DNA of 64,000 nucleotides from Balneola sp. Its GTDB lineage: Bacteria > Bacteroidota > Rhodothermia > Balneolales > Balneolaceae. Position 1 is the first letter of the stretch, and every line of letters starts with the position of its first letter. The stretch spans positions 98,556-162,555 of the forward strand of contig NZMW01000012.1 in assembly GCA_002694685.1 (NCBI GenBank), read 5' to 3'. The position numbers and the translations under genes were made by a program. Shown here piece after piece: positions 11,875 through 49,754 of this stretch. Under the pieces are notes generated by a model. That model saw only the letters and a list, made by a program, of their open reading frames with translations, was not told the DNA's origin and did not search any database.

Positions 11875-11886
11875 AGGTCGCCTTAA

Positions 11887-12417: not shown

Positions 12418-12433
12418 AATAAATTTCGGTCTG

Positions 12434-17591: not shown

Positions 17592-17663
17592 TAAGTTCAC
17601 ATACTAGAATGAATAATGCTATGGTGGTAATATGATCTGAGAATATTCAACGGATATAAAAAA

Positions 17664-29094: not shown

Positions 29095-29104
29095 TAACCG
29101 GTTA
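29095..29104. promoter_or_regulatory. Motif A operator upstream of TBDR1 (perfect TAACCGGTTA)
   Basis: TTTAACCGGTTAAGTAA, about 165 nt upstream of the start. Confidence 0.8.
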
Positions 29105-29269
29105 AGTAAGAAGCAGTTTTATATAGAAAACTGAGCTTAGCTTTAGAGACAAAAAGGCGGAATACTTGAAGCAGCTTATAACTGATATTTATTAGGAGAG
29201 AATAGCGGGATAAACTGGAAGCGCTTTGACGATTTTAGCCGATAAGTTTATAAAAAGAAATTGGATGTC

Positions 29270-31897
29270 ATGATCAATAAATGGGAAGAATTTTTATCTG
29301 GAAGTTGTACACTAGCTTTTACGAAAAGCCGTGTTGATTCAGTGCCGGCTTTGAATGGAGTGTCTTTTCTATTGATAGCTTTACTTACGTTTATTCCAGG
29401 AATAGTCAATGCTCAGGAAGCCACTGATGCTGACAGTGTTGAAGTGCAGCTCGAAGCCCCAATCTCATATTCCGAGAACGCAGATTTTTCCAGTAGCCTT
29501 AATTTTTCAGAATTTGCCGCTTTTGGAGATATCTCTTTAGAAGAAGCACTAATCCGAATTCCCGGAGTTCAGGCTTCAAGAGATGGAGAAATTAATTTCA
29601 GGGGAGTAGGTTATAACTCATATGGAGTCGCTTTTAATGGGTTACGCCTTGCAAACACAGGTTTAGGTACACGGAATATTGATCCCGGAAATATTTCAAT
29701 GGACGTTATTCAAAGTGTAGAAGTGACTAAAGTGTTAGATCCTTCAATGAGTGCAGATGCTTTTGCAGGATTAATTAATCTCAACACAAATCGTGTTATT
29801 CCCGCTGGGAAAAAGCGCACGCTTAGCGCTTTAGTTGGAGGAGAAGCGAATACTAAGTACAACAGCAGAACCGGTCCGGGTAGCAGGGCATGGATACATT
29901 ATGCAGAAAGTTTTTCGGATGAAATCGCTGTTTCGGTAAGTCTTGGTTACCATCAGGCTATAAGATCTGTTGAAGAGTTACAAATCGACTTCGGTACGGA
30001 AAATTTTGGTAATGGAGCGGTAGATGTATTTGACCGTGTATCTCCGTCAGTTAATATTACAGAAAATGGAAGGTTCACTTCTTCTGCAGATGTGTATTTC
30101 ACTCCCGATGAAGTGAATTCCTACTTTTTTAAAGGATATTTTAATAGTAATGATCAGGTTTACACCACCCATCAAGACAGCTGGATTACAGGTGGCGACT
30201 GGATTGACCAGTCTACAACCGGGGCTCAGGGAGAATTAGGCTCCTTTTCTCATGAGGCAGGAATGTCAGCATTGAATACTTCACAGTTCGCTTTCCAGGC
30301 GGGGGGAGAACATGAAATGGATTCCTACACGCTGAGTTATAATGCCGGCTGGACTCAGGGCCGAGCAGATAACAGGGATTACCTTTTTCCATTTCAAATT
30401 GATGAGCTTAACTATGCGTTGGATCTAAGCGATGAGAATCGACCCAGATTTGAATTTACTAATCGTGAAGTCCAGATTTTAGATGATGGTACTGTTGACC
30501 GTCAATTTATGATAGGACAAGATTTTGACCGGATTGTTGAAGAACATGTAAATAATGAAATTGCTGTTCGAGCCGATTTAGAGTTTCCAATTTCTTCCGG
30601 CGCGTTAAAAGCAGGTTTGAGTTCACGATGGTCTTCGAAAGAGGGTGAGTACGATGAGAACCGGTTTGAGTATAACCGAACCCTACGAATGATCAGCTTT
30701 AATATGCTTCGTGAGCCAAACAGAAATATTGATGTAATCAATGATGCTTACAATATTCCATGGTTTGTAAATACTGAGAATGCCAGAGCATTTTTTGAAA
30801 GTCAGCGGCCTCTTTTTACCGGTGATGATAACTATGCGGCTTATCAGTCAGAAATACGGAACTACACAACAGATGAACAAATTTATGCTGGTTATGCAAT
30901 GGCCGATATGGAATTTGCTGGTTTGGAAGTCAAAGCTGGTGCACGGGTCGAATATGCTATTACTGACCTTGTTGGTAATTCCGTTTCCTTTAATGAAGAC
31001 GGCGATGTCCAACCTGTTACGGAGCAAAGCGAAAGCGAAAGTGCATTACACCTATTTCCCAATCTGCAAATCAACTATGGGCTTACAGAGCAGAACAACA
31101 TTAAAGCCGCTTATTCTAGAACCATAGATCGCCCCGATTACTTCCCGCAATCCCCGTTTACCCGCATTGATAATCAAGACTCAACTACTTTTAGTGGAGA
31201 TCATACGCTGGAAGCTATTACCTCCGAAAACTTTGACTTAATGTTCGAGCAAAGGATTGGAAATAGTGGATTCATCACGGTAGGAGGTTTCTATAAATTA
31301 ATAAACAACTTTATTGAACAGCGGGAAGTTGTGGGTCAGCCAAACACACAGTACGATGGCTATCAGCGCGTTCTTTATGTGAATAGTGATGAAACCGGAA
31401 CAGTGTACGGAGTAGAGCTTTCGGTTGATCAACGGCTGAACTTTCTATCAGGCTTCCTACGTAATATGGGAGTGTATGCAAACTACACATGGTCTCAATC
31501 CAGCTACAGGTCAGTAGCAAGTCGTGATAAACAAGCATTTACAGGGCATAGTCCTCATGTGCTGAATGGTGCCTTGAATTATACATTAGATCGATTCAAA
31601 GCACAGGTATCCTATCATTGGAGTTCAGAGGCACTTACAAGGGTTGCATCCGGACAACAATTGGCTCCAGAGATTGCTCAGAGCAACGTTTACTTAGATC
31701 AATATGAAGACGGCTATGAAGAGCTTTCCTTAACAGCGAGTTATAAATTGTCTTCTCGATTCAGTGTATGGACAAATATGAACCATCTGATGAGCTCGCC
31801 GGAGATTGAGTACCTCAGAAACAGGAGTGCTTATCCAACAAGCACATACATTCGCAGCGGTTTTGATTTAAGGGTGGGGGTAAGGTTTGATATATAA
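29270..31897 (+). CDS. TonB-dependent receptor 1 (non-SusC type, no N-terminal carboxypeptidase-regulatory-like domain)
   Basis: Plug signature RIPGV...FRG...NG.R...IQSVEVTKVLDPSMSADAFAGLINL; alternating beta-strands; C-terminal strand RVGVRFDI. The start is uncertain (TTG 29261 or ATG 29270). Confidence 0.88.
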   Translation: MINKWEEFLSGSCTLAFTKSRVDSVPALNGVSFLLIALLTFIPGIVNAQEATDADSVEVQLEAPISYSENADFSSSLNFSEFAAFGDISLEEALIRIPGVQASRDGEINFRGVGYNSYGVAFNGLRLANTGLGTRNIDPGNISMDVIQSVEVTKVLDPSMSADAFAGLINLNTNRVIPAGKKRTLSALVGGEANTKYNSRTGPGSRAWIHYAESFSDEIAVSVSLGYHQAIRSVEELQIDFGTENFGNGAVDVFDRVSPSVNITENGRFTSSADVYFTPDEVNSYFFKGYFNSNDQVYTTHQDSWITGGDWIDQSTTGAQGELGSFSHEAGMSALNTSQFAFQAGGEHEMDSYTLSYNAGWTQGRADNRDYLFPFQIDELNYALDLSDENRPRFEFTNREVQILDDGTVDRQFMIGQDFDRIVEEHVNNEIAVRADLEFPISSGALKAGLSSRWSSKEGEYDENRFEYNRTLRMISFNMLREPNRNIDVINDAYNIPWFVNTENARAFFESQRPLFTGDDNYAAYQSEIRNYTTDEQIYAGYAMADMEFAGLEVKAGARVEYAITDLVGNSVSFNEDGDVQPVTEQSESESALHLFPNLQINYGLTEQNNIKAAYSRTIDRPDYFPQSPFTRIDNQDSTTFSGDHTLEAITSENFDLMFEQRIGNSGFITVGGFYKLINNFIEQREVVGQPNTQYDGYQRVLYVNSDETGTVYGVELSVDQRLNFLSGFLRNMGVYANYTWSQSSYRSVASRDKQAFTGHSPHVLNGALNYTLDRFKAQVSYHWSSEALTRVASGQQLAPEIAQSNVYLDQYEDGYEELSLTASYKLSSRFSVWTNMNHLMSSPEIEYLRNRSAYPTSTYIRSGFDLRVGVRFDI

Positions 31898-31937
31898 AAT
31901 TAACGACATAGACCCGGCTAAAATCAGAAAGATCAAT

Positions 31938-34502
31938 ATGAAAAATCGTTTTCTAAATACTATGGTTGAAGCAAGAAGCAATTACATCTCAGGCCTATTC
32001 ATGGTTTTGACCATAATTTTTGGGATAACCAGCATGCAATCCGCTACAGCCCAAAATGTAACGAATAGTGAAGACCAAATATTTACGGACTCACTTAGCA
32101 ATGTTGAGGTACAGGATTTTGGCGACTATACTATTGAGAATGCATTTGCTCGCTTTCCGGGTGTTCATGTGAACCGGGATGGGTCAATTAGTTTACGAGG
32201 AACAGGTTACGGGAATTATTACATGCTCATTAACGGTCAGCGGTTGTCTTCTACTGGTCGAAATACACGTGTAGCTAATGCAGGAGCTATTTCTGTTGAC
32301 TTAATTGAAGAAATCCAATGGGTTAAAGTACTTACACCTGATATGGATGCGGACGGGTTGGCAGGAGCTATTCACCTTAAAACATTTTCCCCTTTGAGAG
32401 ACCGAACGGTGATGTCGGGAAGTATTGGTGGAGGATTGAATCCTACATATAGCAAAGAAACCGGAGCCACAGGAAGAAGTTGGTTACGCTATTCAGGGCC
32501 CGTAAGCGATCAGCTGAGTTTATCCATTGGTGCAAATTATCAAAGAGATCAGCGGGCATGGGAATCTCTGGAGATGGGGTATGGAACTACCGATTTAGGT
32601 TCAGGTCCGATTGATGTTATTGACCGGCTTTCTCCAGGCTTTCAAAGTGAGGGCGTAAATCGTTTTGCCGGGAATTTTCAGCTAGGCTATTATCCATCTG
32701 AATCTTCAAACTATTACTTCAATGGTTTTGTAAACCTGAATCAGTTGAAGATGTCTGATCACAAGTATAGTTGGTTAGCCAATGGAGACTGGGCAGATGC
32801 TAATACTACTGGCGGAAGTCAGTCCGATTTTGGCTATGATTTAAATTATGAAGAGCGAAATACTGCTCAATTTACTTTCCAGGCAGGCGGTGAAAACACC
32901 TTTGATTCATTTATTTTTGATTATCAGGTGGGGTTGTCTCAAAGTATTATAGACCGAACAGAGAACCTCTATCCTTTTTTAGAAACCGGTGTTGAATATT
33001 CTATTGATGCCTCTGATCCGTTCCGCCCAACGGCTTCCCCTATGGAAGGTAAACCAGTTCCAGCGGATATGGATCTCGAGGAGATGAACTATATTATTGA
33101 CGACTATCGAGATAAAGAATTAAGCAGTAGGGTAAATGTTGAAATCCCTATTAGTGTGGGTTCTGTGAAAGCTGGTGCGAGTGCACTATTTAAAGAGCAA
33201 GATGCTAATGAAAGAGGTGCATTTAGCGAATATCATTATCAGTTTCAGGGATTCTTAAACCTGGAAGGCTTTGAAGAAGGAAACCTGAATCGTCTAAGCG
33301 TTTTTGATAATACGTACGATCTGGACCGACTGGTTGATCCCGAGCAGGCTAATTCCTTTTTCCAATCAAGTATTCCAAATATGCGATTGGATGACCGGGC
33401 ATATTACCGGGATTCAGAAATCTACAACTACTTTAGTGATGAGAATATTTATGCTGGTTACGCTATGGCGAACCTCGACTTTGATCCAATCACACTTATC
33501 ATAGGTGCGAGGGTTGAACATACCTCATCATCTTATGAGGGAAGGGTTGTAGAGTATAACAGATTCTCTCAGTTTGAAGAGGTAGCTGATACTTCAGCCA
33601 GTAACAGCTTTATGAATGTATTCCCCAATGCCCAGGTTAACTATCAGTTAAGTGAACAGATTAACCTGAAAGCTGCTTACTCTAAAACCATCTCAAGACC
33701 TCAATTGAATTTGTTGGCTCCATTCGAGTTAAGCACACCAGAAGACACTTCTTTATTTGCGGGTAACCCAAACTTAGATCCCGTAATGTCTGACAATATC
33801 GATTTAATGTTTGATTATATGTTTGATAACGGTGGATCCTTTTCAATAGCGGGTTTCTATAAAACCATGTCAGGATTTATTGAATCTGTTGATTCTGAAA
33901 TCCAGATCAATGAAGGAGAGTATCAATATTTTGAACCCCTATTTCAGGACGGCCAAACACAGATTGCTGGCACAAGAACCACCTATCAAAACTCTGATAA
34001 TTCAGCCGATGTATATGGGGTAGAGGTAGCGATACAAAAACAGTTATCCTTTTTACCAGGGCTGCTAAAGAATTTTGGAACCTATGCAAACTATACTTGG
34101 TCTGATTCAAAGTTTGAAAACTCAAGAGGTGACGAAACAGCTATTCCAGGACAAAGTCCGCATGTTGTAAACGCAGCTCTTAATTATCACCAAAATCGGT
34201 TTTTTGCTCAACTTTCCTTTCAATGGTCAGATGAAATGTTAAGCAGCCTTGAAAGTGAAACTCAACTTGCACCAGCTATTGGAGGTGGTCAGGTTTACTT
34301 GGATCGATATCAAGATGGTTTTCAAGAATTATCAGCTACTGCAAAATTTGATGTATCTGATAAAGTTGAAATATGGACAAATATCTACAATCTGTTAAAT
34401 AAAGAACGGGTTGAATACGCTTTCAGTCGGGATAACTACCCAACTAGCATTTACAAGAGAAATGGAATCGAATTTAATGTCGGTGTTCGCGTTAGACTAT
34501 AG
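31938..34502 (+). CDS. TonB-dependent receptor 2 (paralog of TBDR1, short N-terminus)
   Basis: RFPGV...LRG...INGQR...VKVLTPDMDADGLAGAIHL; GNPNLDP, YANYTWSDS; ATG 31938 lies after the TBDR1 stop. Confidence 0.88.
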   Translation: MKNRFLNTMVEARSNYISGLFMVLTIIFGITSMQSATAQNVTNSEDQIFTDSLSNVEVQDFGDYTIENAFARFPGVHVNRDGSISLRGTGYGNYYMLINGQRLSSTGRNTRVANAGAISVDLIEEIQWVKVLTPDMDADGLAGAIHLKTFSPLRDRTVMSGSIGGGLNPTYSKETGATGRSWLRYSGPVSDQLSLSIGANYQRDQRAWESLEMGYGTTDLGSGPIDVIDRLSPGFQSEGVNRFAGNFQLGYYPSESSNYYFNGFVNLNQLKMSDHKYSWLANGDWADANTTGGSQSDFGYDLNYEERNTAQFTFQAGGENTFDSFIFDYQVGLSQSIIDRTENLYPFLETGVEYSIDASDPFRPTASPMEGKPVPADMDLEEMNYIIDDYRDKELSSRVNVEIPISVGSVKAGASALFKEQDANERGAFSEYHYQFQGFLNLEGFEEGNLNRLSVFDNTYDLDRLVDPEQANSFFQSSIPNMRLDDRAYYRDSEIYNYFSDENIYAGYAMANLDFDPITLIIGARVEHTSSSYEGRVVEYNRFSQFEEVADTSASNSFMNVFPNAQVNYQLSEQINLKAAYSKTISRPQLNLLAPFELSTPEDTSLFAGNPNLDPVMSDNIDLMFDYMFDNGGSFSIAGFYKTMSGFIESVDSEIQINEGEYQYFEPLFQDGQTQIAGTRTTYQNSDNSADVYGVEVAIQKQLSFLPGLLKNFGTYANYTWSDSKFENSRGDETAIPGQSPHVVNAALNYHQNRFFAQLSFQWSDEMLSSLESETQLAPAIGGGQVYLDRYQDGFQELSATAKFDVSDKVEIWTNIYNLLNKERVEYAFSRDNYPTSIYKRNGIEFNVGVRVRL

Positions 34503-34545
34503 CAATTAATATATCCCAATTACTCACTCTACTATTTATAAAATT

Positions 34546-36570
34546 ATGAAGTACCAGAATATCAATATTTTTCAGCCTTTGCTTAAGAAGGCCTTTTATG
34601 GGTTTATGACACTGGCCTTGAGCATGTTTTTTATGGCTGATGGTGTCAGCCAGCAGTTGGCCTTTCCAGGAGCCGAAGGGTTTGGGAAATACACTTCTGG
34701 AGGCCGTGGCGGCGAAGTTTATACTGTTACAAATCTCGATGATTCTGGTGAAGGAAGCCTTCGCCGTGGCGTTGAAATGGAAGGAGCTCGTACTATAGTA
34801 TTTGCTCTTTCCGGGACGATTGAACTTCGTACAGATTTGACTATCCGAAATGATTCTATTTCAATTTTTGGGCAAACAGCACCAGGGGATGGAATTGCCA
34901 TAAGTGGCCGTTCAACTGTAATTAGTGCGGATAATGTGATTATTCAGTACGTACGTTTCCGCCCAGGTGATATAGGAACAGGTGATCTTGATGGTTTAGA
35001 TGCATTGTGGGGAAGACAAAACTCCGATATTATTATTGATCATGTGTCGATGAGTTGGTCGATAGATGAGGTAGGTAGTTTCTATGACAACACGAACTTT
35101 ACGCTACAGTGGAGCATACTTAGTGAGAGTATGTACAATTCGGTTCACTCCAAAGACGAGCATGGCTATGGCGGTATTTGGGGCGGAGCAGGTGCAACGT
35201 TTCATCATAATTTGCTAGCTCACCACACGAGCAGAAATCCACGATTTAACGGAGCTAGATATACCACAAGTCCTGAGACAGAAATAGTAGACTACCGCAA
35301 CAACGTAATCTATAATTGGGGCTTCAATAGTGCCTACGGCGGCGAAGATGGTAACCATAATATGGTGGCGAATTATTACAAGGCAGGACCAGCAACAGAT
35401 GATACAGATCGAATTTTAGATGCTGATGCCAATGACGGTTCTGAATGGTATATAGAAGACAATTACGTAGAAGGCTATCCTGATATTACTGCTGATAACT
35501 GGGACGGAGGCGTTCAAAATATTACAGAGTTAGAAGAAGACTTAATCAGAGCTATCGAACCTTTTGAAGCTCCGGCTTTAGAATCATTTGAAACAGCTGA
35601 AGAAGCATATCTTAGTGTACTTGAATTTGCAGGTGCAACTCTACCGAGAAGAGATACTGTAGATGCACGTATTGTTCATGAAACCAGGACTGGAACGGCT
35701 ACCTATGGCGGCGGTTCCTATGATGGTGGGGGAGATAATGGAATTATTGATAGTCAGGAAGACGTAGGAGGATGGCCTGAATTATTATCTGCATCCGTAC
35801 GGATTGATACGGATGGTGATGGCATTCCCGATGATTGGGAAAATGAAAATGGACTAGATCCAGATGATGCTGAAGACGGTAAATCAATTGCCGGAAATGG
35901 GTATTCTCATCTTGAAAATTATGTTCACAGCATTCAAACTCAGGGCGAATTTACTCCAGCCCCGGGAACACTTGCTCTGGTATCTCCAGTTGGGAAATCC
36001 AGTGTTTCAGTTCAGCCTGAATTTATTTGGGAATCTGCGGTACTAGCTGAAAGCTACGAGTTAGAAATTCGAAACGGAACAAGCAGCTCTGCTGATATCA
36101 TTTATAAAACGACTGTTCCAGATACCATGTATTTATTCCCTGCCGATACACAACTTGCGGGTGAAGAAACCTATTTCTGGAGAGTTAGAGGAAAGAATGG
36201 AACAGGAACAGGGCTGTGGACTGGGTATGAATTTTTCGTGACTGAGATGGTAACATCTACAGAAAACGGAACTGATGAACCTAATGACTTCACTCTATCA
36301 CAAAATTATCCAAACCCGTTCAACCCAACCACCAACATAAGCTATGGTCTGCCTCAAGCAGCAAAAGTTGAAATCAAAGTATATGATATGGCTGGGCGTG
36401 AAGTGGCTGAATTAGTGAATAGAAATCAGTCTGCTGGACGACATACTGTTCAGTTTGATGCTAGTTCATTGGCTTCAGGAGTGTATGTATATAGGTTGAC
36501 CGCCGTTTCAGGTCAGGCAGCAGGAAACATTATGTACACCCTAACTCGAAAAATGGCATTAATTAAATAA
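34546..36570 (+). CDS. T9SS-secreted PL1 pectate lyase + FN3-like domain + CTD
   Basis: AFPGAEGFGKYTSGGRGG, IIDHVSMSWSIDE, HHTSRNPR, DTDGDGIPD; YFWRVRGKN; [10 protein letters not shown]...KMALIK. Confidence 0.92.
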   Translation: MKYQNINIFQPLLKKAFYGFMTLALSMFFMADGVSQQLAFPGAEGFGKYTSGGRGGEVYTVTNLDDSGEGSLRRGVEMEGARTIVFALSGTIELRTDLTIRNDSISIFGQTAPGDGIAISGRSTVISADNVIIQYVRFRPGDIGTGDLDGLDALWGRQNSDIIIDHVSMSWSIDEVGSFYDNTNFTLQWSILSESMYNSVHSKDEHGYGGIWGGAGATFHHNLLAHHTSRNPRFNGARYTTSPETEIVDYRNNVIYNWGFNSAYGGEDGNHNMVANYYKAGPATDDTDRILDADANDGSEWYIEDNYVEGYPDITADNWDGGVQNITELEEDLIRAIEPFEAPALESFETAEEAYLSVLEFAGATLPRRDTVDARIVHETRTGTATYGGGSYDGGGDNGIIDSQEDVGGWPELLSASVRIDTDGDGIPDDWENENGLDPDDAEDGKSIAGNGYSHLENYVHSIQTQGEFTPAPGTLALVSPVGKSSVSVQPEFIWESAVLAESYELEIRNGTSSSADIIYKTTVPDTMYLFPADTQLAGEETYFWRVRGKNGTGTGLWTGYEFFVTEMVTSTENGTDEPNDFTLSQNYPNPFNPTTNISYGLPQAAKVEIKVYDMAGREVAELVNRNQSAGRHTVQFDASSLASGVYVYRLTAVSGQAAGNIMYTLTRKMALIK

Positions 36571-36670
36571 GAATGCCCCTTCAAAGTATTTAAAAGACTG
36601 TTTTCAAGGTCTTTTAGATGAAATAATTTTGATTCTTAAGACAGAAAATTGTTAATTATAGTAACAAATT

Positions 36671-36680
36671 TAACCGGTTA
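36671..36680. promoter_or_regulatory. Motif A operator upstream of TBDR3 (perfect TAACCGGTTA)
   Basis: TTTAACCGGTTAAGTT, preceded by a TAAAAGAC/GTCTTTTA hairpin at 36591-36616. Confidence 0.8.
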
Positions 36681-36694
36681 AGTTGTTGGATTAT

Positions 36695-39688
36695 ATGCGC
36701 ATTAAATCAAGTGTTATAGAGAGTTTAGAGACATTGTTTCATTTAAAAGAAGCTGAAAGCGCTTCGAACGTATTAAGGCTAAAAGTTAACTGGATTCAAT
36801 TCTCTATTGTTTTACTTGTAATGGTTGTATCGCCAATGATTGCCTTGGCTCAAACAGGAATCATCAGGGGAGAAGTTAAAGATGCCGAAAATGGCGAGGC
36901 TTTAATTGGTGCAAATGTTGTAGTTCAAGGAACTAGTATAGGTGCCTCTACTGATATCGATGGAAGGTATATCGTACGAGGAGTACCAGCAGGTGCACAA
37001 ACTATTCTTTTCAGATATTTAGGTTTTGAGTCTAAAGAAGTAGAGGTAACCGTTGAAGAGGGAGAAACGCTTGAGTTAAATATGGAGCTTTCCAGTACTA
37101 CTATCCAGGGAGCAGAAATTCAGGTTACAGCTCGCCAAAGAGGCCAATCAAGAGCGCTTAGTGAGCAAAGAAAATCAAAGAATATTAAAAACGTAATATC
37201 AGCTGAGCAGATTGAAACCTTTGCTGATAACACAGTAACTGGTGCCCTTTCAAGAATCGCAGGTATGGGCCATGGTGGAACCAATATACGTGGTGTGGGT
37301 GCAGGTTCAGCAAACGTTACCATGAACGGTCAGCGTATGGGTGCTACCGGAGGAGACCGAAGTGTTGATTTGAGTACAATTTCTGCTGATATGGTTCAGA
37401 ATCTCGAGGTAATTAAAGTAATTACTCCTGATATGGAAGCGGATGCCCTTGCTGGGGTTATCAATATTAGTACACGCCGGCCAGTAGGTGGGGAACGTGA
37501 CATGAATATCAGACTTGGCGGTGGTTTTCAAGATCGATACATCCGTCATGCCGGAACCCAGCAAAGAGCCTCTATTAATTATGGTGACAGCCCAACTGAT
37601 AATTACTCATTTGGAGTGAATTTTAGCTACCAGAAAGATCCATCAGCGAGTGAACTTTTTAGAACTGAATGGGCAAGCAGAACTTTTGAAAGTACAGCTC
37701 CAGAAGTAGTAGATATCTTATCTGATGTACAAAATGAGTTTAATTATACTATTCCTGAAAGAATTGGCTCCGGTTTACAGTTTACGTTCCAGCCTACAAA
37801 TGAGAGTACTTATCATATTGAAGGTATTTTCAATATTCAGAATCAGTCACAGTATCGATATGGGGTTAATTATGAGCCCAGAATGGCTAACTACTCCGAG
37901 CCTACCTACACCGGAAACCCGAATGGAGCCAACGATCCAGATGCTGAAAACCAGGGCAGTATAAGTTACAACCCACGTTTAGATGAGTCCACGATCCATC
38001 AATATACCGTTCAGGCTGGTGGTCGTCATCGCTTAGATAATATGGACATTGAGTACAAGCTTGGTTGGGGACACGGAAGATTTAGTGAAGATGAGTATCG
38101 GATGAGTTTTCAGACAGGTTCAGACCATGAATTTATTTTTAATACTGATAACCGGTGGAAACCGACTGTAGAGGTTGCTCCATGGAGTCGGTTTCCTGGT
38201 TATCCTCCTGCAACCGAAATGGATTTTCAGGATATGGATCATCGCGTTAACAGTAATGTTGATAATGATTTTGAAGGGACTTTCGATATTGAAATTCCAT
38301 ACTCTAACGGTTCATTCAAAACGGGTTTAAATGCTTCTTTAACCTATAAGCGCGGTATTGGAGAGCGGTTGCTTAGGAACTACAGCTCAAATCTTGATAT
38401 CTCAAAGTTTCAGCAAATTGAGAATGCGAACTGGAGTATTTTCAATCGCTCAGGACGTACCTACGAAATCCCTTGGTTGATCGATCTGGATCAGGCAAAA
38501 GAATTTTATATAACACAAACACCTCGTTTCCAAACTGATCTTGATGAGTGGGCATTAAGTACTGAAACATCGAAGTACAATGCCAATGAAAATACCTACG
38601 CCACCTACTTAATGGCAGATTTTCAAATCGATTGGTTCACCGTTTTAGGGGGGCTTCGTCTCGAATACACGGATAATAGTTACACAGGGCGGGAAAGTGA
38701 AATTAGCAGCTCAGGAGTGTTTCAAGGCGCTACTGATATTACAGAGACGAACAGCTATTTCAATCTCTTTCCAAATTTGCAGACCGTTTTTTCCATTAAC
38801 AATTTTACTAATCTAAGGTTTGCATATTCCCGATCTATTGGACGTCCAAACTTTGGTCAGCTTAATCCCTATGTACAGCGAAATTTTGCTACACGAACTA
38901 TACAGCGAGGGAATCCTGATCTAAGTCCAATGCTCTCTAATAACTTTGATGTACTTTTTGAGCACTATTTCCTCAATGTTGGGCAGTTTACGGTAGGTCT
39001 CTTTTATAAGGATATGAAAGACTTTGTTTTCTCCTCTAATCAAGTTGTGGATTACTCTGCTGACAATAATGATGAAGGACTAACCGGGCGATGGAACGTC
39101 AATAGCTTTCAAAACGGTGAACAGGCTACTGTTTATGGAGCCGAGTTTACCTGGCAGCAGAACCTGGAGTTTTTACCAGGAATTCTTGGCAATCTGGGTA
39201 CCTACGTAAATTACTCCTATTCGCAGTCTATTGCAGATGTTGGCCGAACAGTGAATGAAAGATATACCCACGGCTTAGCTGAATTATTTGAGTTTGTTGG
39301 AGGAAATGTAGATCCCGATTACAAATATATAACTCCTCTGGAAGGACAGCGTCCACACATCGTTAATGCGGGTCTCGATTTTACCAAAGGCGATTTCTTT
39401 ACTCAAATTACGTATCAGTGGTCGGCTGCGGCTATTTCTTCCTATGGTAGTAATGACCAAACTCTCGTTTCTGTCGGGAATGTTTACTACGATCAATTTA
39501 ATGGAGCAACAAAGGATTTATCTTTCACAGCCAGGTATTGGTTATCGGAAAATTTTCAAGTCTGGTTTGACGCATCGAACATCCTGAATAACCTGGAGCG
39601 AGACTACTATTACGAACCTGATTTATACCCTTACACATCTGAATTGAATGGAAGGGAAATTACACTCGGGTTGCGTTACCGACTTTAA
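36695..39688 (+). CDS. TonB-dependent receptor 3 with N-terminal CarboxypepD_reg-like domain
   Basis: GIIRGEVKDAENGEALIGANV...FRYLGF; EIQVTA (TonB-box-like); IKVITPDMEADALAGVINI; GNPDLSP; C-terminal TLGLRYRL. The start is uncertain (36683, 36695 or further downstream). Confidence 0.9.
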   Translation: MRIKSSVIESLETLFHLKEAESASNVLRLKVNWIQFSIVLLVMVVSPMIALAQTGIIRGEVKDAENGEALIGANVVVQGTSIGASTDIDGRYIVRGVPAGAQTILFRYLGFESKEVEVTVEEGETLELNMELSSTTIQGAEIQVTARQRGQSRALSEQRKSKNIKNVISAEQIETFADNTVTGALSRIAGMGHGGTNIRGVGAGSANVTMNGQRMGATGGDRSVDLSTISADMVQNLEVIKVITPDMEADALAGVINISTRRPVGGERDMNIRLGGGFQDRYIRHAGTQQRASINYGDSPTDNYSFGVNFSYQKDPSASELFRTEWASRTFESTAPEVVDILSDVQNEFNYTIPERIGSGLQFTFQPTNESTYHIEGIFNIQNQSQYRYGVNYEPRMANYSEPTYTGNPNGANDPDAENQGSISYNPRLDESTIHQYTVQAGGRHRLDNMDIEYKLGWGHGRFSEDEYRMSFQTGSDHEFIFNTDNRWKPTVEVAPWSRFPGYPPATEMDFQDMDHRVNSNVDNDFEGTFDIEIPYSNGSFKTGLNASLTYKRGIGERLLRNYSSNLDISKFQQIENANWSIFNRSGRTYEIPWLIDLDQAKEFYITQTPRFQTDLDEWALSTETSKYNANENTYATYLMADFQIDWFTVLGGLRLEYTDNSYTGRESEISSSGVFQGATDITETNSYFNLFPNLQTVFSINNFTNLRFAYSRSIGRPNFGQLNPYVQRNFATRTIQRGNPDLSPMLSNNFDVLFEHYFLNVGQFTVGLFYKDMKDFVFSSNQVVDYSADNNDEGLTGRWNVNSFQNGEQATVYGAEFTWQQNLEFLPGILGNLGTYVNYSYSQSIADVGRTVNERYTHGLAELFEFVGGNVDPDYKYITPLEGQRPHIVNAGLDFTKGDFFTQITYQWSAAAISSYGSNDQTLVSVGNVYYDQFNGATKDLSFTARYWLSENFQVWFDASNILNNLERDYYYEPDLYPYTSELNGREITLGLRYRL

Positions 39689-39841
39689 TAATGAATTTAA
39701 AGCAATAAATAATCTCCAATCATACAATGATCAGCACCATATGTATGGGTCGGAGTTTATCAATCTAAGAACAACAACTCTAAAGCGAGTATTATGCAAA
39801 CATTCGATACTAAGACAAAAATAAAAGGTAGGGGAGATGTT

Positions 39842-42088
39842 ATGTTTAATCTTTTCCGTTTAAAATTATGCAAAGCTTTTAGTGGCATCTTTTTAGCAGT
39901 AATGATGACAACATTCATGGCCGTAGATTCATTTGCCCAGCCAGGTGAAGGCTATGTTATCAACGAAGATGATTCACTGGCTCTTGTAGCTTATTATGAG
40001 TCAACAAATGGTGATCAATGGATTGATAACTCTGGTTGGCTCACTGATGCCCCCGTTTACTCTTGGGTTGGTATTGAAGAGGTAGCCAACGTAGCTGGCG
40101 ATGGAGAGCCTGCTGACTGGCGTGTAACAGTGATTGATATGCCTAGAAATAACATGACGGTTCCTGGTCCACTTCCAGCGGACTTGGCAGATCTTGAATT
40201 TCTTGAAGATTTTAAGGCAGATGTGAATTTACACATTGGAGGATTACCACCAGAATTAGCTACTCTTGACAGACTTCAGTTCTTATTGGTGCGAACCAAC
40301 CTATTCACTGGAACAGTTGATTGGGATGTGTTTTCTCAAATGGAGTCTATGCAGCAATTCCGAATTCGTCAGAACTACTTTTCTGGCCCTTTACCTCAAA
40401 CTTTAGGTGGTAATGGTTCTTGGCCCGCACTTACTCGTCTATATGTAGATGACAATCGTTTTACTGGACAAATTCCTGAAGTTCATTCAGAATTGACCAC
40501 ATTAAATCGTGTTTATTTCCATAATAACAGGCTAACCGGACCGATTCCAGATTGGTCAAGTCTTGAAGGTATGGAGTATTACCGTATTGCGAACAATGAT
40601 CTTGAGCCAGGACCGATTCCAGAATGGATATTTGACTCTTGGGGTGAAACACTGATTCGTTTCCAAATTCAAAATACCAACCGAACAGGTTCTCTTTCTC
40701 CGAAACTTGCCCAAATGGAAGCACTTGAGCAATTTATTATTGGGGGCCAGGGAGACACTATTGGTGAGGGCGAAACAACGGACGATATACCGGATCTATC
40801 AGTGATGCCTAGCCTGAGAAGAATTAACTTCTATGGCGGTGGATGGACAGGTGGACTTCCTACATGGGTTGGTGATGTTGCTAATCTTGAAGACGTCCAC
40901 TTCGCAAATATGAATATTACAGGTACTATCCCAGCTGAATGGGCAAATGCCGATTTAATTAATATTCACCTTGAAGACCTTAACATTGAAGGCGGACTAC
41001 CAGCAGCATTTTCTGTTGTGAATAGTATCCAATCTATCGTACTCATCGACAATCCAAACATGACAGTAGGTGAAATTCCTGATTGGATCGGTGGAAGCAT
41101 TGGAAACGTAACTGAGCTAGTACTTGAAGATGTTGGTGTAACAGGGGATATCTCTAACAATAACCTGATTAACCTTCAACTTGAATCCTTGAATCTGAGT
41201 GATAATCCTGAATTAACAGGATCTTTACCAAGCTGGTTTGAAACTAAAAATTGGAGCTTACTTGAACTTTCCAGAACTGGAATTGGGATCAGTTCAATAC
41301 CATCATGGTTAGGAGACCAGGATAATCTTTCTTACTTAGGTTTAGGAGGATTAGGACTTGAAGGCGAAATACCATCATTTTTCGGTGAAGGTTTGATTGC
41401 TGTAAATCTAACCACTTTAGCACTTGATGATAACAACCTTACAGGAAGTATCCCTGCTTCTTTAGGAAATACAATTCAGCTTGATTCCCTTAACCTATCA
41501 AACAATCAGCTATCGGGCGACATACCTGCCTCACTTGCTGATGCAGGACGAGTAACTGATGACCTGAGCGTTCTAGGTGCTCTGCAGCTTTCAGGGAATG
41601 CAGACCTCTCCGGAGAGCTGCCAATTGGATTGACAGATGCTACTTTCATGAGAGTTCTAGAGTACGATGGAACTAATATCTGTGAGCCAAGTGACGGAGC
41701 TTTTGAAACATGGATTGATGGAATTCCAGATTTTGCAGCTGAAAGCTATCCAATAGCCTATTATTCAGTATCAAGAACAAACGTCTCATGTGGAACGGTT
41801 TCTGTAGAAAATGATGGAACCCCGAATAAGTTCCAGTTACAACAGAACTATCCGAATCCATTTAACCCAACTACAAGCATTAAATACGAGATTCCTGAAG
41901 CAGCAACTGTTTCGCTTACCGTTTACAACATGCTTGGACAAGTAGTAGCTACTCTGGTTAATGACTTTAAAGCTGCAGGTAATTATGAAGTGAATTTTGA
42001 TGCTTCAAACTTTGCAAGTGGAAGTTATATCTACCGGCTTGAAGCTGGAGATAGAGTCTCTACTCAACAGATGATGCTGATTAAATAG
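39842..42088 (+). CDS. T9SS-secreted leucine-rich-repeat protein
   Basis: N-cap [15 protein letters not shown]....GW; plant-like LRR units LxLxxNxLxGxIPxxL; C-cap NICEP...W; [13 protein letters not shown]...MMLIK. The start may be 39794. Confidence 0.88.
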
Positions 42089-42143
42089 AACTTTAGTCAT
42101 GATGTTGTTGAGCTTTAATCATCTCAGCAATTCTAAAAAGATC

Positions 42144-42180
42144 ACCCGTATAGTTCGAAAAAGCTATACGGGTTTTTTTT
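42144..42180 (+). terminator. Intrinsic terminator after the LRR gene
   Basis: ACCCGTATAG / CTATACGGGT stem followed by a T run. Confidence 0.9.
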
Positions 42181-42223: not shown

Positions 42224-43138
42224 ATGAAATTAGATTATCGGTTTTATTTACTACTACCCGTTATTGTTACTTTAGTTCTTTCTGGAGTCTTCACTGGTGG
42301 TCACCTGGTATCATGGGGTGGGGATAGAAGTGAACAGGTTTCTAAAACTCCATCTGGAGAAGACTTTATAGATATTTCAGCCGGATACTTGCATAGCGTT
42401 GCCCTAAAAAAAGATGGAAGCATTTATGCTTGGGGATCAGACGGTGATGGTCAAGTTTCAAAAGCTCCAAAAACTAAAAATTTCACAGATGTAGCAGCCG
42501 GAAGCAATCATAGCGTTGCTTTGACTGAAGAAGGCACCGTTGTTAGCTGGGGATGGGATTATTCGATAAATGAAGAATATGCAAGGGGTACCATACCCAA
42601 AAGAAATGGATTTGTAGCAGTTTCAGCAGGCGGTAACCATAGCCTTGCCTTACATGAAGATGGAAGTATACATGCATGGGGATGGAATACAAATGGCTTA
42701 ATAAGTGATACTCCTGAAGGAAATGATTTTGTGGCTATTTCTGCAGGTACCTACCACAACTTAGCTCTTAAGGGTGACGGAACGGTAGTAGCTTGGGGAG
42801 ACGACATGTTTGGTTCAGTTGATGATACGCCAACGGATAAAAATTATACCGCAATTTCAGCAGGAGCCCGTCATAGCCTTGCACTCAGAAAAGATGGAAG
42901 CATTGCGGCATGGGGCTGGGACCTAAAAAAAGAAGTAAGTTCAACACCAACCGAAAACGGTTTTACATCTATTTCAGCGGGTTATTCCCATAGCATAGCA
43001 CTTAAAGAGGATGGTTCATTAGTAGCCTGGGGGTGGGAGCGAAACGATGAGGGACAAATCAGCGAGCTACCAGAGGGTAATGGATTTACTCGAATTTCTG
43101 CCAGTGACTTTCATAACCTGGCGATACGCTCTAATTAA
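42224..43138 (+). CDS. RCC1/BLIP-II-like seven-repeat beta-propeller with hydrophobic N-terminus
   Basis: Seven ~39-aa units G(S/T)xxAWG...F..ISAG..HS.AL..D making up the whole mature protein. Confidence 0.9.
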   Translation: MKLDYRFYLLLPVIVTLVLSGVFTGGHLVSWGGDRSEQVSKTPSGEDFIDISAGYLHSVALKKDGSIYAWGSDGDGQVSKAPKTKNFTDVAAGSNHSVALTEEGTVVSWGWDYSINEEYARGTIPKRNGFVAVSAGGNHSLALHEDGSIHAWGWNTNGLISDTPEGNDFVAISAGTYHNLALKGDGTVVAWGDDMFGSVDDTPTDKNYTAISAGARHSLALRKDGSIAAWGWDLKKEVSSTPTENGFTSISAGYSHSIALKEDGSLVAWGWERNDEGQISELPEGNGFTRISASDFHNLAIRSN

Positions 43139-44175: not shown

Positions 44176-45765
44176 TTACCAGGCCTGAACCTCTGGCGAT
44201 TCTTTAACGATATCTTTCGTTAAGCCATCCTTAAATTCAATTTGATTATTAGGGAAGTCATCTGTGAAAATTGCTCCGGTATGACGTCCTTGAAGAGTAA
44301 AAGGCTTTCCTGAAACTCCATCATTTAGAGTCAGGTTATTAAGGAATATTTCATATACATCTTCAGCAATCATCGCTTGCTCTTCAGAGTTAATGGTTAC
44401 ATTCGTCATCTTCAGTCCCTTAACACGCGTTATTCGAGCTCCTTTTTCAGAATTAATGACGTTGATGTTTTCGAGGTGAATATTTTCGAGCCATTTTTCT
44501 GGAAGACCTACAAGTTCAATCGCAGTTGGTACACCGTCAATTTCCACATCTTTAATATGGACGTTTCTCATTAGAGGAGAAGGACCTGTAACTCCAGGGC
44601 CTGTATAAAACGTATTAAAGTTTATAGCCTGATACGTGATATTTCGCATCTTTATATTTTCGATGAAGATGTTTTCGACGACATTACCACGTCCACGTTC
44701 GGTTTTAAATCGAATGCCTCGGTCACTTCCATCAAAAAGGGCATTGTGGACATAAACATTTCGGATTCCTCCCGATGTTTCACTTCCAAATACAACGCCT
44801 CCACTTCCTGTGCGAACTCTTCGGGCTTCAAAATTTCTAACTACTACGTTTTGTGTAGGAATGTTGATTTCCAATGCCTCTTCATTGAGCCCGGATTTGA
44901 GCACAACGGCATCATCGCCCGTTTCAAAATGATTATACTCAACAAGTACATCCTGTGAGGAATCAAGAACTACACCATCCCCATTTGGAGCTTTAAGACT
45001 ATTGATATTTACTCCACGAATAATAATTCGCTTGCTATAGATCATATGCAAATTCCACATAGGAGAGTCAAGCATTGAGATATCTTCAATTAAAATATCC
45101 TCGGACTCCCAAAAAACAACAAAACTGGGACGCATACCTTCCATTCCTGAACCCTTTCCAAAGTCTCGCCTGGATAAAGGTACTTTTGAGGCCGCAGCTC
45201 GGGGTGGAGTACCATGCTCTTCATACCATTCCCACCAGTGATCAGCCTGAGCATTTAGAAGCCCTGTTCCCGTGATCGATACGTTCTTCACTTTGTATGC
45301 ATAGATCATAGGAGAGTAGTTGTAGGCTTCTACACCTTCATGGCGCTGCCTTACAACCGGCAAATAATCTTCTTTATCAGTACTGAATAATACTTCTGAC
45401 CCTTCAGCTAAGTGAAGATCCATATTACTTTTAAGGTGAATAGGACCTGTAAGCCATTTTCCCTTTGGAATGAGAATTTGCCCGCCACCAGCTTCCGCTG
45501 CAGCCTCAACAGCCCGATGGATGGCATCCGTATTTTTGAAGTCTGAAGATTCATCCATAGTCTGAGCGCCATAATCCCGAATGTCAAATACCTGATCAGG
45601 TATTTCCGGGCGCTCCAATTCAGCCATTTCGAAAGGTGCATCCATTGGCGCAATATTCTCAGGTTTTTCTCCCATCTGAGCAAAGGCCGTTGCTGGAAAT
45701 ATAATGAGAAGTAAAAGTATAGATACTTTTGTTAAAGCTTCTTTTAATGCGTGGGTATAACTCAT
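44176..45765 (-). CDS. GH28 (exo-)polygalacturonase-like enzyme
   Basis: LTGPIHLKSN..LHL..G, PNGDG, TGDDAVVLKSG, GGVVFGSE, RGIRFKT; signal peptide; ATG 45765 preferred. Confidence 0.9.
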   Translation of the reverse strand: MSYTHALKEALTKVSILLLLIIFPATAFAQMGEKPENIAPMDAPFEMAELERPEIPDQVFDIRDYGAQTMDESSDFKNTDAIHRAVEAAAEAGGGQILIPKGKWLTGPIHLKSNMDLHLAEGSEVLFSTDKEDYLPVVRQRHEGVEAYNYSPMIYAYKVKNVSITGTGLLNAQADHWWEWYEEHGTPPRAAASKVPLSRRDFGKGSGMEGMRPSFVVFWESEDILIEDISMLDSPMWNLHMIYSKRIIIRGVNINSLKAPNGDGVVLDSSQDVLVEYNHFETGDDAVVLKSGLNEEALEINIPTQNVVVRNFEARRVRTGSGGVVFGSETSGGIRNVYVHNALFDGSDRGIRFKTERGRGNVVENIFIENIKMRNITYQAINFNTFYTGPGVTGPSPLMRNVHIKDVEIDGVPTAIELVGLPEKWLENIHLENINVINSEKGARITRVKGLKMTNVTINSEEQAMIAEDVYEIFLNNLTLNDGVSGKPFTLQGRHTGAIFTDDFPNNQIEFKDGLTKDIVKESPEVQAW

Positions 45766-45910
45766 AGTAAATACGTTGGGCATGGTTAGGACTTTTAGGT
45801 TAAATGGTTTTGGACTTCAGGTAATGTCTTCATCAAGTATCCAAGAGCCATTTTTGGTTGAAGAAATATCAGATTATAAGACTGGATTAATCATTTAAAC
45901 CAATTTTAAG

Positions 45911-48764: not shown

Positions 48765-49754
48765 ATGAAAAATGTTACTCTGCAGGATATTGCCGATGAA
48801 TTAAATCTGACGAAAGTCAGTATCTCTAAGGCTCTTCGTGACCATCCTGATATATCCGAAGGAACACGGATAAAAGTCAAAGAGATGGCTAAGAAGATGA
48901 AGTATCGGCCAAATTTGGTTGCCCGTTCTTTGACGTCCTCAAAATCGAAAACTATAGGGTTAATCATCCCAAAAATAGCCCATTACTTTTTCGCTTCAGT
49001 AGTTGAATCCATTTACAAAACAGCTTTTGATCATGGCTATGAGGTAATTATTGGTGTTTCTTTGGAGGATGAGAAACTGGAGAAAATTCATATTGAAACT
49101 ATGTTACAGATGAGGGTAGATGGCTTGCTTATATCCACGACCGAGCAGACCAAAGATCTAGAACGATTTGAGGTGGTTAAAGATATGGGTATTAATCTGG
49201 TATTCTTTGATCGGGGATTTAATGATTCAGGCTTTAGCTATATAAAAGCCGAAGATAGAAACAGTGCACGGCAGGGAGTTACCTATTTAATAGAACAGGG
49301 TTGCACTAATATTGCTCACTTATCAGGTTTTGATTCTGTAGATATTGGTCGAAATCGTAGATTAGGCTATGAAGATGCTATGAAGGAAGCAGGTATAGAG
49401 ATTAACCCTGACGCTATTATTGAAGGAGGATATAACGAAGAGGCTGGCTACAATAGCTTCAAGAGATTAGTCGAATCTAGCGGAGTGCCGGAAGCCGTGT
49501 TTACTGTAACCTATCCAGTGGGTTTGGGAGCATTAAAATACATGAATGAGCATGACATTGATCCTAAAACAGTAAAAATTCTAAGCTTTGGCAAAAGTGA
49601 TTTTAATAAATATCTGACTTCACCTTTTACCTGTATTGATCAGCCTACAAAATCGTTAGGTAGACGCGCAGTGAAGCAGTTACTTTCTGAGATAAATGAG
49701 GAAGGGACAAGTACCCCCGTTTTGACCGAATTAGCTTGCAAGATATCTATTTAA
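48765..49754 (+). CDS. LacI-family transcriptional regulator (ExuR/UxaR-like by context)
   Basis: VTLQDIADELNLTKVSISKAL HTH, YRPNLVARSL hinge; lies between uxaC and uxaB. Confidence 0.93.
   Translation: MKNVTLQDIADELNLTKVSISKALRDHPDISEGTRIKVKEMAKKMKYRPNLVARSLTSSKSKTIGLIIPKIAHYFFASVVESIYKTAFDHGYEVIIGVSLEDEKLEKIHIETMLQMRVDGLLISTTEQTKDLERFEVVKDMGINLVFFDRGFNDSGFSYIKAEDRNSARQGVTYLIEQGCTNIAHLSGFDSVDIGRNRRLGYEDAMKEAGIEINPDAIIEGGYNEEAGYNSFKRLVESSGVPEAVFTVTYPVGLGALKYMNEHDIDPKTVKILSFGKSDFNKYLTSPFTCIDQPTKSLGRRAVKQLLSEINEEGTSTPVLTELACKISI

Follow-up and report, generated by a model that had tools for sequence, protein, structure and literature searches.

A plant-type LRR protein with a type IX secretion tail is a candidate partner of non-SusC TonB-dependent receptors in a Balneolales pectin locus

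Introduction

Spotting SusC/SusD pairs is the basis of PUL prediction and of a large part of glycan ecology in the sea and the gut. Surface partners are also familiar from the TonB-dependent transporters BtuB–BtuG and HmuR–HmuY, which have surface accessory lipoproteins. Flavobacterium johnsoniae ChiA is a T9SS-secreted CAZyme of a PUL, and loci of this kind use SusC/SusD; BspA-type LRR proteins of Tannerella and Prevotella are T9SS cargo and adhesins. The CUT loci of Xanthomonas are said to have been described by Blanvillain et al. 2007, and pectin loci with TBDRs in marine Gammaproteobacteria reportedly by Hehemann et al. 2017.

Here we analyse a 64,000-nucleotide stretch of DNA (the window) from a marine Gracilimonas (Balneolales; genome 3.95 Mb) that holds a pectin/hexuronate regulon of ~52 kb. 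At its centre lie TonB-dependent receptors (TBDRs) that are not of SusC type, followed by genes whose products end in a type IX secretion (T9SS) C-terminal sorting domain (CTD), one of them an LRR protein. We propose, with a probability of about 0.6, that this part of the locus would be the outer-membrane capture and import portion of a LacI-operator pectin regulon and that the LRR protein would be a dedicated transporter accessory.

Results

We delimited two units in the 29.1–42.2 kb part of the window, each preceded by a perfect copy of the palindrome TTAACCGGTTAA: TBDR1–TBDR2–PL1 pectate lyase with a T9SS tail, and TBDR3–LRR protein with a T9SS tail–terminator (Table 1). The regulon co-locates the gene classes of a CUT-type system, namely three TBDRs, the enzyme classes PL1, CE8, GH28, GH43 and GH88/105, a TRAP transporter DctPQM and two LacI regulators. 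The perfect palindrome occurs only twice in the genome, both times in this locus, and is kept at the same place before TBDR3 in three related genomes (loci L040, L041 and L042). With up to two mismatches, 11 sites fall in the window against 2.76 expected, a number reached by none of 100 shuffles, and one such operator variant at 5373 is linked to the gene for a 1153-aa SusE-like protein. We presume that the palindrome is a LacI-family operator. The ORFs and domains agree with those that the sequence-only reading had described. It had marked both units by this motif, correctly except for coordinates one base off, and had placed a hairpin before the second operator, which exists and is weak; its terminator at 42144 was borne out as a strong one. 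This terminator divides the LRR gene from the RCC1 gene, and the 105-nt gap between TBDR3 and the LRR gene contains none.

Table 1. Positions of genes and regulatory elements in the window
Feature	Position	Strand	Basis or remark
CE8 pectin methylesterase carrying a T9SS CTD; another of the regulon's secreted enzymes	2095..5151	+	operator variant at 2038
1153-aa repeat protein, SusE-like domain and T9SS CTD	5824..9285	+	SusE PF14292 E 6e-12; Por_Secre_tail
TRAP transporter DctMQP, inner-membrane uronate uptake	10576..13552	-	domain assignment
LacI-family regulator 1	16563..17600	-	domain assignment
Operator 1, perfect 12-bp palindrome TTAACCGGTTAA	29094-29105	.	~155 nt upstream of TBDR1
TBDR1, short, 878 aa, without CarboxypepD_reg extension	29261..31897	+	Plug and TonB_dep_Rec_b-barrel
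TBDR2, short, 871 aa, overlaps TBDR1 end	31887..34502	+	domains, TIGR01782 score
PL1-type pectate lyase, middle Ig-like region, T9SS type A CTD	34546..36570	+	Por_Secre_tail residues 588-657
Weak hairpin in the gap between PL1 and operator 2	36581..36632	+	dG -16.8 kcal/mol, z -1.77
Operator 2, perfect 12-bp palindrome TTAACCGGTTAA	36670-36681	.	14 nt before TBDR3 ATG
TBDR3, long, 997 aa, SusC-like CarboxypepD_reg N-terminal extension; TIGR01782-type plug and barrel	36695..39688	+	domain scan
LRR-CTD protein, 764 aa: signal peptide, N-cap, ~20 plant-specific-type LRRs, C-cap, T9SS type A CTD	39794..42088	+	
Intrinsic terminator 3′ of the LRR gene	42144-42173	+	12-bp stem, 5 G-C pairs, T-run
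RCC1-repeat beta-propeller, 304 aa, N-terminal signal or anchor, no lipobox	42224..43138	+	RCC1_2 E 3.1e-60
GH28 polygalacturonase	44176..45783	-	conserved module neighbour in pectin-type loci
LacI-family regulator 2	48765..49754	+	domain assignment

Profile scores place the three receptors apart from SusC. Against the TIGR01782 (TonB-Xanth-Caul) cut-off of 310 bits, TBDR2 and TBDR3 pass with 336.4 and 367.5 bits and TBDR1 falls below with 271.7. The SusC/RagA model TIGR04056, with a cut-off of 368.25 bits, left TBDR1 and TBDR2 unmatched and gave TBDR3 39.7 bits over its N-terminus only; in a whole-genome scan with the same model the window locus reached 55 bits, against 782 and 475–533 bits for the genome's two real SusC genes. 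A CarboxypepD_reg extension (PF13715, E 1.7e-22, residues 61–148) is present in TBDR3 and absent from TBDR1 and TBDR2, and the plug motif on which the sequence-only reading had relied was recovered in all three receptors. Translation probably starts at ATG 29270 in TBDR1 and ATG 31938 in TBDR2; the TBDR3 reading frame begins at 36683, with its ATG at 36695. By these models TBDR1–3 are classed as TIGR01782-type receptors and not as SusC, in agreement with the earlier description of them as non-SusC.

The same description had called the receptors Caulobacter/Xanthomonas-type and proteobacterial in flavour, a label that belongs to the HMM family name and does not hold for receptors native to the phylum. 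Their nearest relatives are all from Balneolales (51–87% identity), followed by Calditrichota at 28%, and 60 of 201 phylum genomes encode TIGR01782-like receptors, which form deep native clades in the phylum tree, which was built from a fast alignment with FastTree and carries SH-like support values only. Gammaproteobacterial matches have 25–38% identity and lie outside pectin loci; on these matches and the phylum-wide native clades we rejected the idea that the receptors arose in Proteobacteria. A version of the hybrid envisaged by the sequence-only reading, in which a CUT-type pectin system was recently acquired from Proteobacteria by horizontal transfer and joined to local T9SS tails, is very improbable: the best HMM and a TRAP-plus-TBDR layout that resembles that of marine gammaproteobacterial pectin loci speak for it, and the identities, the native clades and a GC content that stays flat over the locus speak against it.

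The claim that no SusD is encoded in the ~52 kb locus held. Pfam scans of the interval 850–53027, which took in every ORF of 150 aa or longer, gave no match to the SusD families PF07980, PF12741, PF12771 and PF14322, and the genome has only two SusD genes, on other contigs (C10 and C4). Whole-genome SusD and operator searches found no SusD visibly co-regulated with the locus. The broader idea of a lineage that builds PULs without SusC/SusD failed, as the genome has two SusC/D pairs and 57 of the 61 family genomes sampled encode SusD.

We next considered the secreted products. The Por_Secre_tail domain reaches the C-terminus in PL1, the LRR protein, CE8 and the 1153-aa protein, and the genome encodes the T9SS sortase PorU (1088.8 bits, contig C13), so that these proteins have both the extreme C-terminal sorting domain and the sortase expected of T9SS type A cargo. 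Genome-wide there are 65 sorting-domain matches, and 64 ORFs carry the domain C-terminally. No PorV-like barrel gene was found beside the receptor/CTD pair among window ORFs, nor in sampled neighbours of the beta-helix pairs described below. The 1153-aa SusE-like protein, a homologue of which adjoins the module in locus L124, is a candidate surface glycan binder. A canonical type A tail on the LRR protein and PorU in the genome mean that an export route already exists, which weighs against a long Oar-like TBDR3 working outward and helping the LRR protein to be exported or inserted at the surface, the part that Oar plays for PopC in Myxococcus (PMC6434023). The CarboxypepD_reg extension is shared with Oar-type TBDTs, and strict pairing of the receptor with one secreted protein would fit this mode of action; the loci are nevertheless catabolic and under a substrate regulator, and we regard an outward TBDR3 as the least probable of the readings considered.

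In the sequence-only reading, T9SS proteins occupied the place of SusD after each receptor. For unit 1 this part of the claim fell away: PL1 matches the pectate lyase of PDB 9buj over residues 34–321 (E 3.4e-74), and the PelZ model covers residues 35–260 with a partial match of 124 bits, below its equivalog cut-off. On this sequence evidence the gene after TBDR2 is assigned as a genuine pectate lyase, an enzyme and not a SusD/SGBP surrogate, so a downstream CTD gene can be merely the secreted enzyme of its locus. What stood is the arrangement itself, since a CTD gene after a non-SusC receptor recurs phylum-wide. Any mechanistic replacement of SusD by a T9SS cargo here is something that we infer.

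The LRR protein is of a different nature. Its 24-residue repeats follow the pattern LxxLxLxxNxLxGxIP behind an N-cap, the features of the plant-specific LRR class. Among PDB sequences the best match is GSO1 (E 2.4e-64), followed among others by FLS2 (E 7.5e-59) and PGIP (E 4e-18), and nearly every listed match is to an LRR protein from plants, in most cases a receptor ectodomain. A Foldseek search with the AF2 model (pLDDT 87.5) returned plant LRR receptors for all of the best 50 matches listed (E ~1e-23). Positions on the concave face are the most variable class family-wide (entropy 2.07 versus 1.61) and are conserved inside the pectin subfamily (0.77 versus 0.89).

Linkage of this protein to a receptor is strict. 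The family is confined to Balneolales, and a genome search with the LRR body only, used because the full-length query drew sorting-domain matches, showed a scattered distribution there, with members in 11 of the order's 121 genomes. All 17 assessable homologues (35–91% identity) adjoin a TBDR3-type receptor, although TBDRs make up <1% of genes; they include homologues at 69, 55, 54, 40, 36, 36 and 35% identity and 10 further ones that came out of 120 genomes of the order sampled without bias. The sequence-only reading had staked its proposal on conservation of this adjacency, which persists down to 35% identity. The loci usually also hold TBDR1/2-type barrels, and many are non-pectin: contexts comprise pectin, ECF-sigma/FecR and a sulfatase/heparinase/BNR locus. 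The LRR family is thus not pectin-specific, which makes a PGIP-like, pectin-specific role unlikely, and we discarded that candidate on the homologues in ECF/FecR and sulfatase/heparinase loci. Distance matrices of the LRR proteins and their adjacent receptors correlate with a Mantel r of 0.97, a value reached in 0 of 2,000 permutations, and paralogous subfamilies of the two match each other; this r is not proof of contact because linked genes, inherited together, co-diverge anyway.

At closer range, the block TBDR1–TBDR2–PL1–TBDR3–LRR–RCC1 is kept in Balneola sp. EAC52 and Gracilimonas mengyeensis DSM 21985, and a closer Gracilimonas sp. MAG keeps it through the LRR gene, with no RCC1-sized ORF after it. 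Across these three genomes LRR protein and TBDR3 are equally conserved (74–87% and 69–87% identity). RCC1 homologues lie 3′ of the LRR gene in loci L041, L042, L122–L125 and L130, and 3′ of a TBDR1-type gene in locus G017, so that the RCC1 propeller is often the module's third member.

These data bear on a simpler explanation, by which the T9SS cargo would be the enzymes and adhesins of the regulon and the LRR protein a free-standing plant or algal wall adhesin, or a PGIP-like binder, brought beside the receptor by operon neighbourhood. The lyase after TBDR2, the precedent of T9SS-tailed LRR adhesins such as BspA of Tannerella, the PGIP match and the lack of the LRR family in most Balneolales count in favour of this explanation. 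It does not account well for 17 of 17 assessable members beside TBDR3-type receptors, including at loci without pectin genes, for co-divergence with the receptor by paralogous subfamily, or for the result that no LRR paralogue was found elsewhere in this genome, and we consider it unlikely. A sensor function, in which the LRR protein would report substrate through the receptor to a regulator instead of helping uptake, is more improbable again. Two distant members in ECF-sigma/FecR/TBDR cassettes (L125 and L129) and the plant receptor ectodomains that make up its best structural relatives point that way; the window and other pectin-type loci nonetheless have LacI regulators and palindromic operators with no ECF sigma and no FecR, and the N-terminal extension of TBDR3 is CarboxypepD_reg and not an STN signalling domain.

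The LRR protein has a counterpart on a wider phylogenetic scale. In a sister receptor clade across the phylum, a beta-helix T9SS protein is encoded directly downstream in 46 of 50 cases, with the partners forming one family and their receptors one clade. In this genome, where one receptor (C1:420693-423542) is followed by its beta-helix partner gene at C1:423546-425147, a CTD gene directly follows five of six TIGR01782-type receptors and none of 19 other TBDRs, against a background of 1.9%; downstream CTD genes accompany 13 of 24 TIGR01782-type receptors in the family and ~33 of 39 across the phylum. Two sister-family receptors of the same clade (L082 and L083) are without a CTD partner, which together with the patchiness of the LRR family indicates that a partner is not obligatory for the receptor type. 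The beta-helix body has no NCBIfam model, and matches of the family profile to PDB sequences are confined to the tail. A search for related loci with the beta-helix alignment drew on the NYPNPFNP tail motif only. PL1 was rejected as a divergent beta-helix partner, as hhalign aligns its sorting domain only. The LRR linkage and the beta-helix pairs across the phylum identify, at the level of gene order, a transporter with a T9SS cargo partner gene as a recurrent design. In the literature searched, which missed most subscription journals, neither the TBDR–LRR nor the TBDR–CTD pairing is described.

Discussion

The arrangement suggests how the LRR protein could act as a transporter accessory. Pectin, here homogalacturonan, would be de-esterified and cleaved at or near the surface by the T9SS-tailed CE8 esterase and PL1 lyase, and the oligogalacturonides would enter through the short TBDR1 and TBDR2 and the long TBDR3 without SusD. 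Periplasmic GH28, GH105/88, PL1-like and esterase enzymes would complete breakdown, with monomers passing via TRAP to a predicted KduI/KduD, UxaC, KdgK/Eda pathway. Once exported by the T9SS and probably anchored by PorU, the LRR protein would most likely sit at the surface beside the barrels, where its concave face may capture substrate or dock transporter or enzymes in a role analogous to that of SusD/SGBPs. Its surface anchoring, physical association and ligand are predictions, and its physical coupling to the barrel is one that we infer from genomics only; as such the LRR protein seems to be a type of partner for transporters that has not been described before.

A bolder extension, possible although we hold it to be doubtful, is that T9SS-anchored SusD-equivalents (LRR in Balneolales, lyase-like beta-helix phylum-wide) might constitute a second, undescribed FCB class of TonB-dependent glycan importer. 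In the LRR version a subfamily-specific concave face would capture glycan, the solenoid would be stably bound in the outer membrane to one long barrel and to one or two short ones, and RCC1 would be periplasmic. If LRR or beta-helix partners do work with the barrel, they would represent a new outer-membrane nutrient-capture architecture, would give type IX secretion a further role in the cell, and would be the first case of bacteria using plant-type LRRs to assist a transporter. The cultured type strain G. mengyeensis DSM 21985 has the same block and makes these proposals directly testable. Loci of this kind, with non-SusC transporters and T9SS cargo as conserved neighbours, escape SusD-based searches, and Bacteroidia relatives run full glycan regulons via non-SusC transporters.

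Compared with SusC/SusD (RagA/RagB), the locus appears to share a TonB-dependent glycan importer gene that adjoins a dedicated partner gene, pairs whose duplicated copies diverge together towards different substrates, and a CarboxypepD_reg N-terminal extension on TBDR3. It differs in barrels that fail the SusC model, in a T9SS-exported partner that is a solenoid of LRRs here and a beta-helix in the sister clade, as against the TPR-like lipoprotein SusD, and in the co-occurrence of two barrel kinds; a lid function is at most putative here. As in Xanthomonas CUT and marine gammaproteobacterial pectin loci, TIGR01782-type receptors are combined with CAZymes, a transporter of the inner membrane, which in this locus is TRAP, and a LacI-type regulator and no SusD, but the Gracilimonas locus adds T9SS-tailed secreted parts, an RCC1 propeller and an LRR protein as its proposed dedicated accessory, and its receptors come from clades native to the FCB lineage. 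The LRR protein resembles BtuG and HmuY by analogy, as a putative surface, non-enzymatic, ligand-capturing protein encoded beside a barrel, yet it is a T9SS cargo of LRR fold and they are lipoproteins of other folds. With BspA it shares an LRR protein bearing a T9SS C-terminal domain and, by prediction, surface display, whereas BspA is an adhesin of another LRR class with no known receptor linkage and the present family has plant-specific 24-residue repeats and is strictly linked to TBDRs. The same LRR subclass takes in the ectodomains of plant LRR receptors and PGIP, the latter acting in a pectin context; unlike plant LRR receptors, the bacterial protein has a T9SS tail and neither kinase nor transmembrane segment. 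Finally, PL1 and CE8 with their CTD tails are, like ChiA, probably secreted enzymes serving an uptake locus, in contrast to ChiA-type loci in which SusC/SusD is still used.

Results

The window corresponds to C9:98556-162555 of its genome. The genome that carries the window (3.95 Mb, 99.7% complete) has Gracilimonas and Balneola (Balneolales) as its nearest public relatives, and a single large pectin/hexuronate regulon spans ~850 to 53027 of the window. The sequence-only reading had described two operator-marked units here, with TonB-dependent receptors (TBDRs) other than SusC and no SusD, and these observations were confirmed. The palindrome TTAACCGGTTAA heads both TBDR1-TBDR2-PL1 and TBDR3-LRR (leucine-rich repeat), has no other perfect copy in a whole-genome search, and keeps its position in three related genomes; looser copies lie upstream of most other locus operons (11 sites observed versus 2.76 expected). 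Downstream of the LRR gene lies a strong terminator, and the hairpin 3′ of PL1 is weak.

TBDR1, TBDR2 and TBDR3 alike possess a plug and barrel, and all score far below the SusC model. TBDR2 and TBDR3 pass the cut-off of TIGR01782, the TonB-Xanth-Caul receptor model, with TBDR1 slightly under, and TBDR3 alone of the three carries a CarboxypepD_reg extension, a feature of SusC proteins too. The locus itself has no gene for a member of the SusD family. Two canonical SusC/SusD pairs occur on other contigs of the genome, with no operator-like sites found near them, and a sample of 61 family genomes contained SusD in 57, with copy numbers running from 0 to at least 31; the lineage therefore has the SusC/D solution and leaves it unused at the pectin locus. 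TIGR01782-like receptors are common across the phylum (60/201 genomes), and gammaproteobacterial matches are distant and of unrelated context. Short TBDR1/2-type barrels without N-terminal extension recur in other loci, and some in distant loci, travelling with a TBDR3-type receptor, may be plug-degenerate because their precomputed Pfam hits give OMP_b-brl_3 only, with Plug unlisted.

The LRR protein is a secreted protein of 764 aa without a paralogue in its own genome. Its confident AF2 model (pLDDT 87.5) comprises an N-terminal cap, ~20 plant-specific 24-residue-type repeats, a C-terminal cap and a beta-sandwich type IX secretion (T9SS) tail, and its best matches by both sequence and fold are plant LRR receptor ectodomains. 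Balneola sp. EAC52 and G. mengyeensis DSM 21985 both keep the block TBDR1-TBDR2-PL1-TBDR3-LRR-RCC1; a more closely related Gracilimonas MAG retains it up to and including LRR, with an RCC1-sized ORF absent thereafter. Across these three, LRR identity is 74-87%, a conservation at least equal to that of TBDR3. The RCC1 propeller, which has a signal anchor, comes next in eight loci and also lies directly 3′ of a TBDR1-type gene in another genome. To our knowledge, RCC1 propellers are not a known component of glycan uptake loci.

Searches with the LRR body recovered a graded family of same-sized, T9SS-tailed proteins (91% to ~33% identity), every organism-named member coming from Balneolales. We inspected eight contexts chosen on assembly-fragment size alone and all usable matches from 120 further genomes sampled evenly within the order, and found the LRR gene beside a TBDR3-type receptor in 17 of 17 assessable loci (860-1470 bits to TBDR3), usually with TBDR1/2-type barrels also present. 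Gene order differs (TBDR3-LRR-RCC1 versus LRR-short barrel-TBDR3-short barrel), as does content: pectin-type loci carry GH28, PL, UxaC and LacI, and non-pectin loci carry ECF sigma/FecR or sialidase-like, heparinase II/III and sulfatase genes, which ties the family to the transporter and not to pectin. LRR distances track those of adjacent receptors (r = 0.97; 0/2000 permutations as high), and LRR and receptor subfamilies match among paralogous copies in one genome. Concave-face positions, assigned by repeat register, vary more than any other class over the family as a whole and are conserved better than remaining positions within the pectin subfamily; together these two features are what a specificity surface would be expected to show.

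These genomic data establish linkage, co-divergence and context independence of LRR and receptor, and the most likely reading makes the LRR protein an accessory dedicated to one particular set of transporters. We place lower odds on its being a free adhesin or a signalling sensor, and on the receptor acting in export, as for Oar/PopC (PMC6434023). Surface anchoring of the LRR accessory is possible, since the genome has PorU. The locus contains no gene for a PorV-like barrel.

A parallel arrangement occurs elsewhere. In this genome a T9SS-tailed gene lies directly 3′ of 5/6 TIGR01782-type receptors versus 0/19 other TBDRs, T9SS-tailed genes being 1.9% of all genes, and none of the three partners encoded outside the window has a Pfam domain of catalytic type. 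Such adjacency holds for 13/24 receptors in 40 family genomes and about 33/39 in 200 phylum genomes. One right-handed beta-helix family, with CBM35 in some members, covers nearly all partners; its fold, from a model of only moderate confidence (pLDDT 64.9, TM ~0.38), appears most similar to those of PL6, PL31 and PL3 lyases and of phage tailspikes. Receptors with this partner form one clade (partner in 46/50 members), and the pairs lie in loci directed at various glycans (GH130 with symporter and epimerase; CE8; MFS transporters). TBDR1-3 form a separate, neighbouring clade; their partners, PL1 and LRR, fall outside the beta-helix family.

Within the regulon, all clearly extracellular components bear T9SS tails, not lipoboxes; lipobox-like signal peptides occur only on GH88/105 and DUF4861. 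UxaE (tagaturonate epimerase), UxuA, UxaB-like dehydrogenase and UxaA together give two tagaturonate-to-KDG routes in one locus. Counted from its first ATG, the DctP ORF shares 134 nt with the KDPG-aldolase gene; the true start is probably further downstream, because the Pfam match begins only at residue 77.

Features in window coordinates, or by contig of the same genome (C) or locus in another genome (L)
Feature	Position	Detail
Palindrome TTAACCGGTTAA	29094	upstream of TBDR1
Palindrome TTAACCGGTTAA	36670	14 nt upstream of probable TBDR3 start codon
CE8 esterase	2095	secreted, T9SS tail
PL1 lyase	34546	secreted, T9SS tail
1153-aa repeat protein	5824-9285	three internal repeats; SusE-like domain (PF14292); T9SS tail in place of lipobox; own operator variant at 5373; in Balneolales bacterium ANBcel1 (L124), homologue (606 bits) directly adjoins TBDR-LRR module
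Second PL1-like protein	22573	periplasmic-type; PDB 9buj, E 1.4e-84
Periplasmic-type enzymes		GH28, GH88/105, GH43, second CE8, esterases
GH88/105	21375-22553	
DUF4861	17664-19031	
TRAP transporter		
DctP/KDPG aldolase	12434-14090	
Cytoplasmic enzymes		KduI, KduD, UxaC, UxaE, UxaB-like, UxaA, UxuA, KdgK, Eda
UxaE, UxuA, UxaB-like, UxaA	27481-29019, 46270-53027, 14209-15381	
LacI regulators		n=2
Short barrels	29261-34502; L127, L133-L139	
RCC1-repeat beta-propeller	42224-43138; L041, L042, L122-L125, L130	N-terminal signal anchor
RCC1-repeat beta-propeller	L037 (G017:C232)	3′ of TBDR1-type gene
Copper/silver resistance island	53850-63503	directly after regulon; CusA-type RND pump, outer-membrane factor, CusB-like adaptor (heavy-metal-binding domain), multicopper oxidase
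Beta-helix pairs	C1:420693-425147, C2:13319-20776; L066-L121	conserved across phylum; TIGR01782-like TBDR (~940-1080 aa), then uncurated beta-helix protein with T9SS tail
Third receptor-partner type	C10:125906-131727; L080, L081	970-aa T9SS-tailed partner, two near-identical ~430-aa halves, no Pfam match

Discussion

The reading that fits this region best is a module for capturing and importing pectin independently of SusD, with the PL1 encoded 3′ of TBDR2 as its surface depolymerase. The earlier interpretation is supported in part and can be sharpened: it stands as to a SusD-less module and T9SS partner linkage, including conserved TBDR-LRR adjacency; a SusD-free lineage does not survive the SusD counts, and the receptor distribution makes its proteobacterial hybrid unnecessary. 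We found no description of TBDR-LRR or receptor-beta-helix pairing in the searchable literature, and a type strain in culture makes the pectin module open to experiment. Systems that pair a TonB-dependent importer with a surface accessory in a CUT/PUL-like locus are of a known kind, and the pectin module here is a variant of it.
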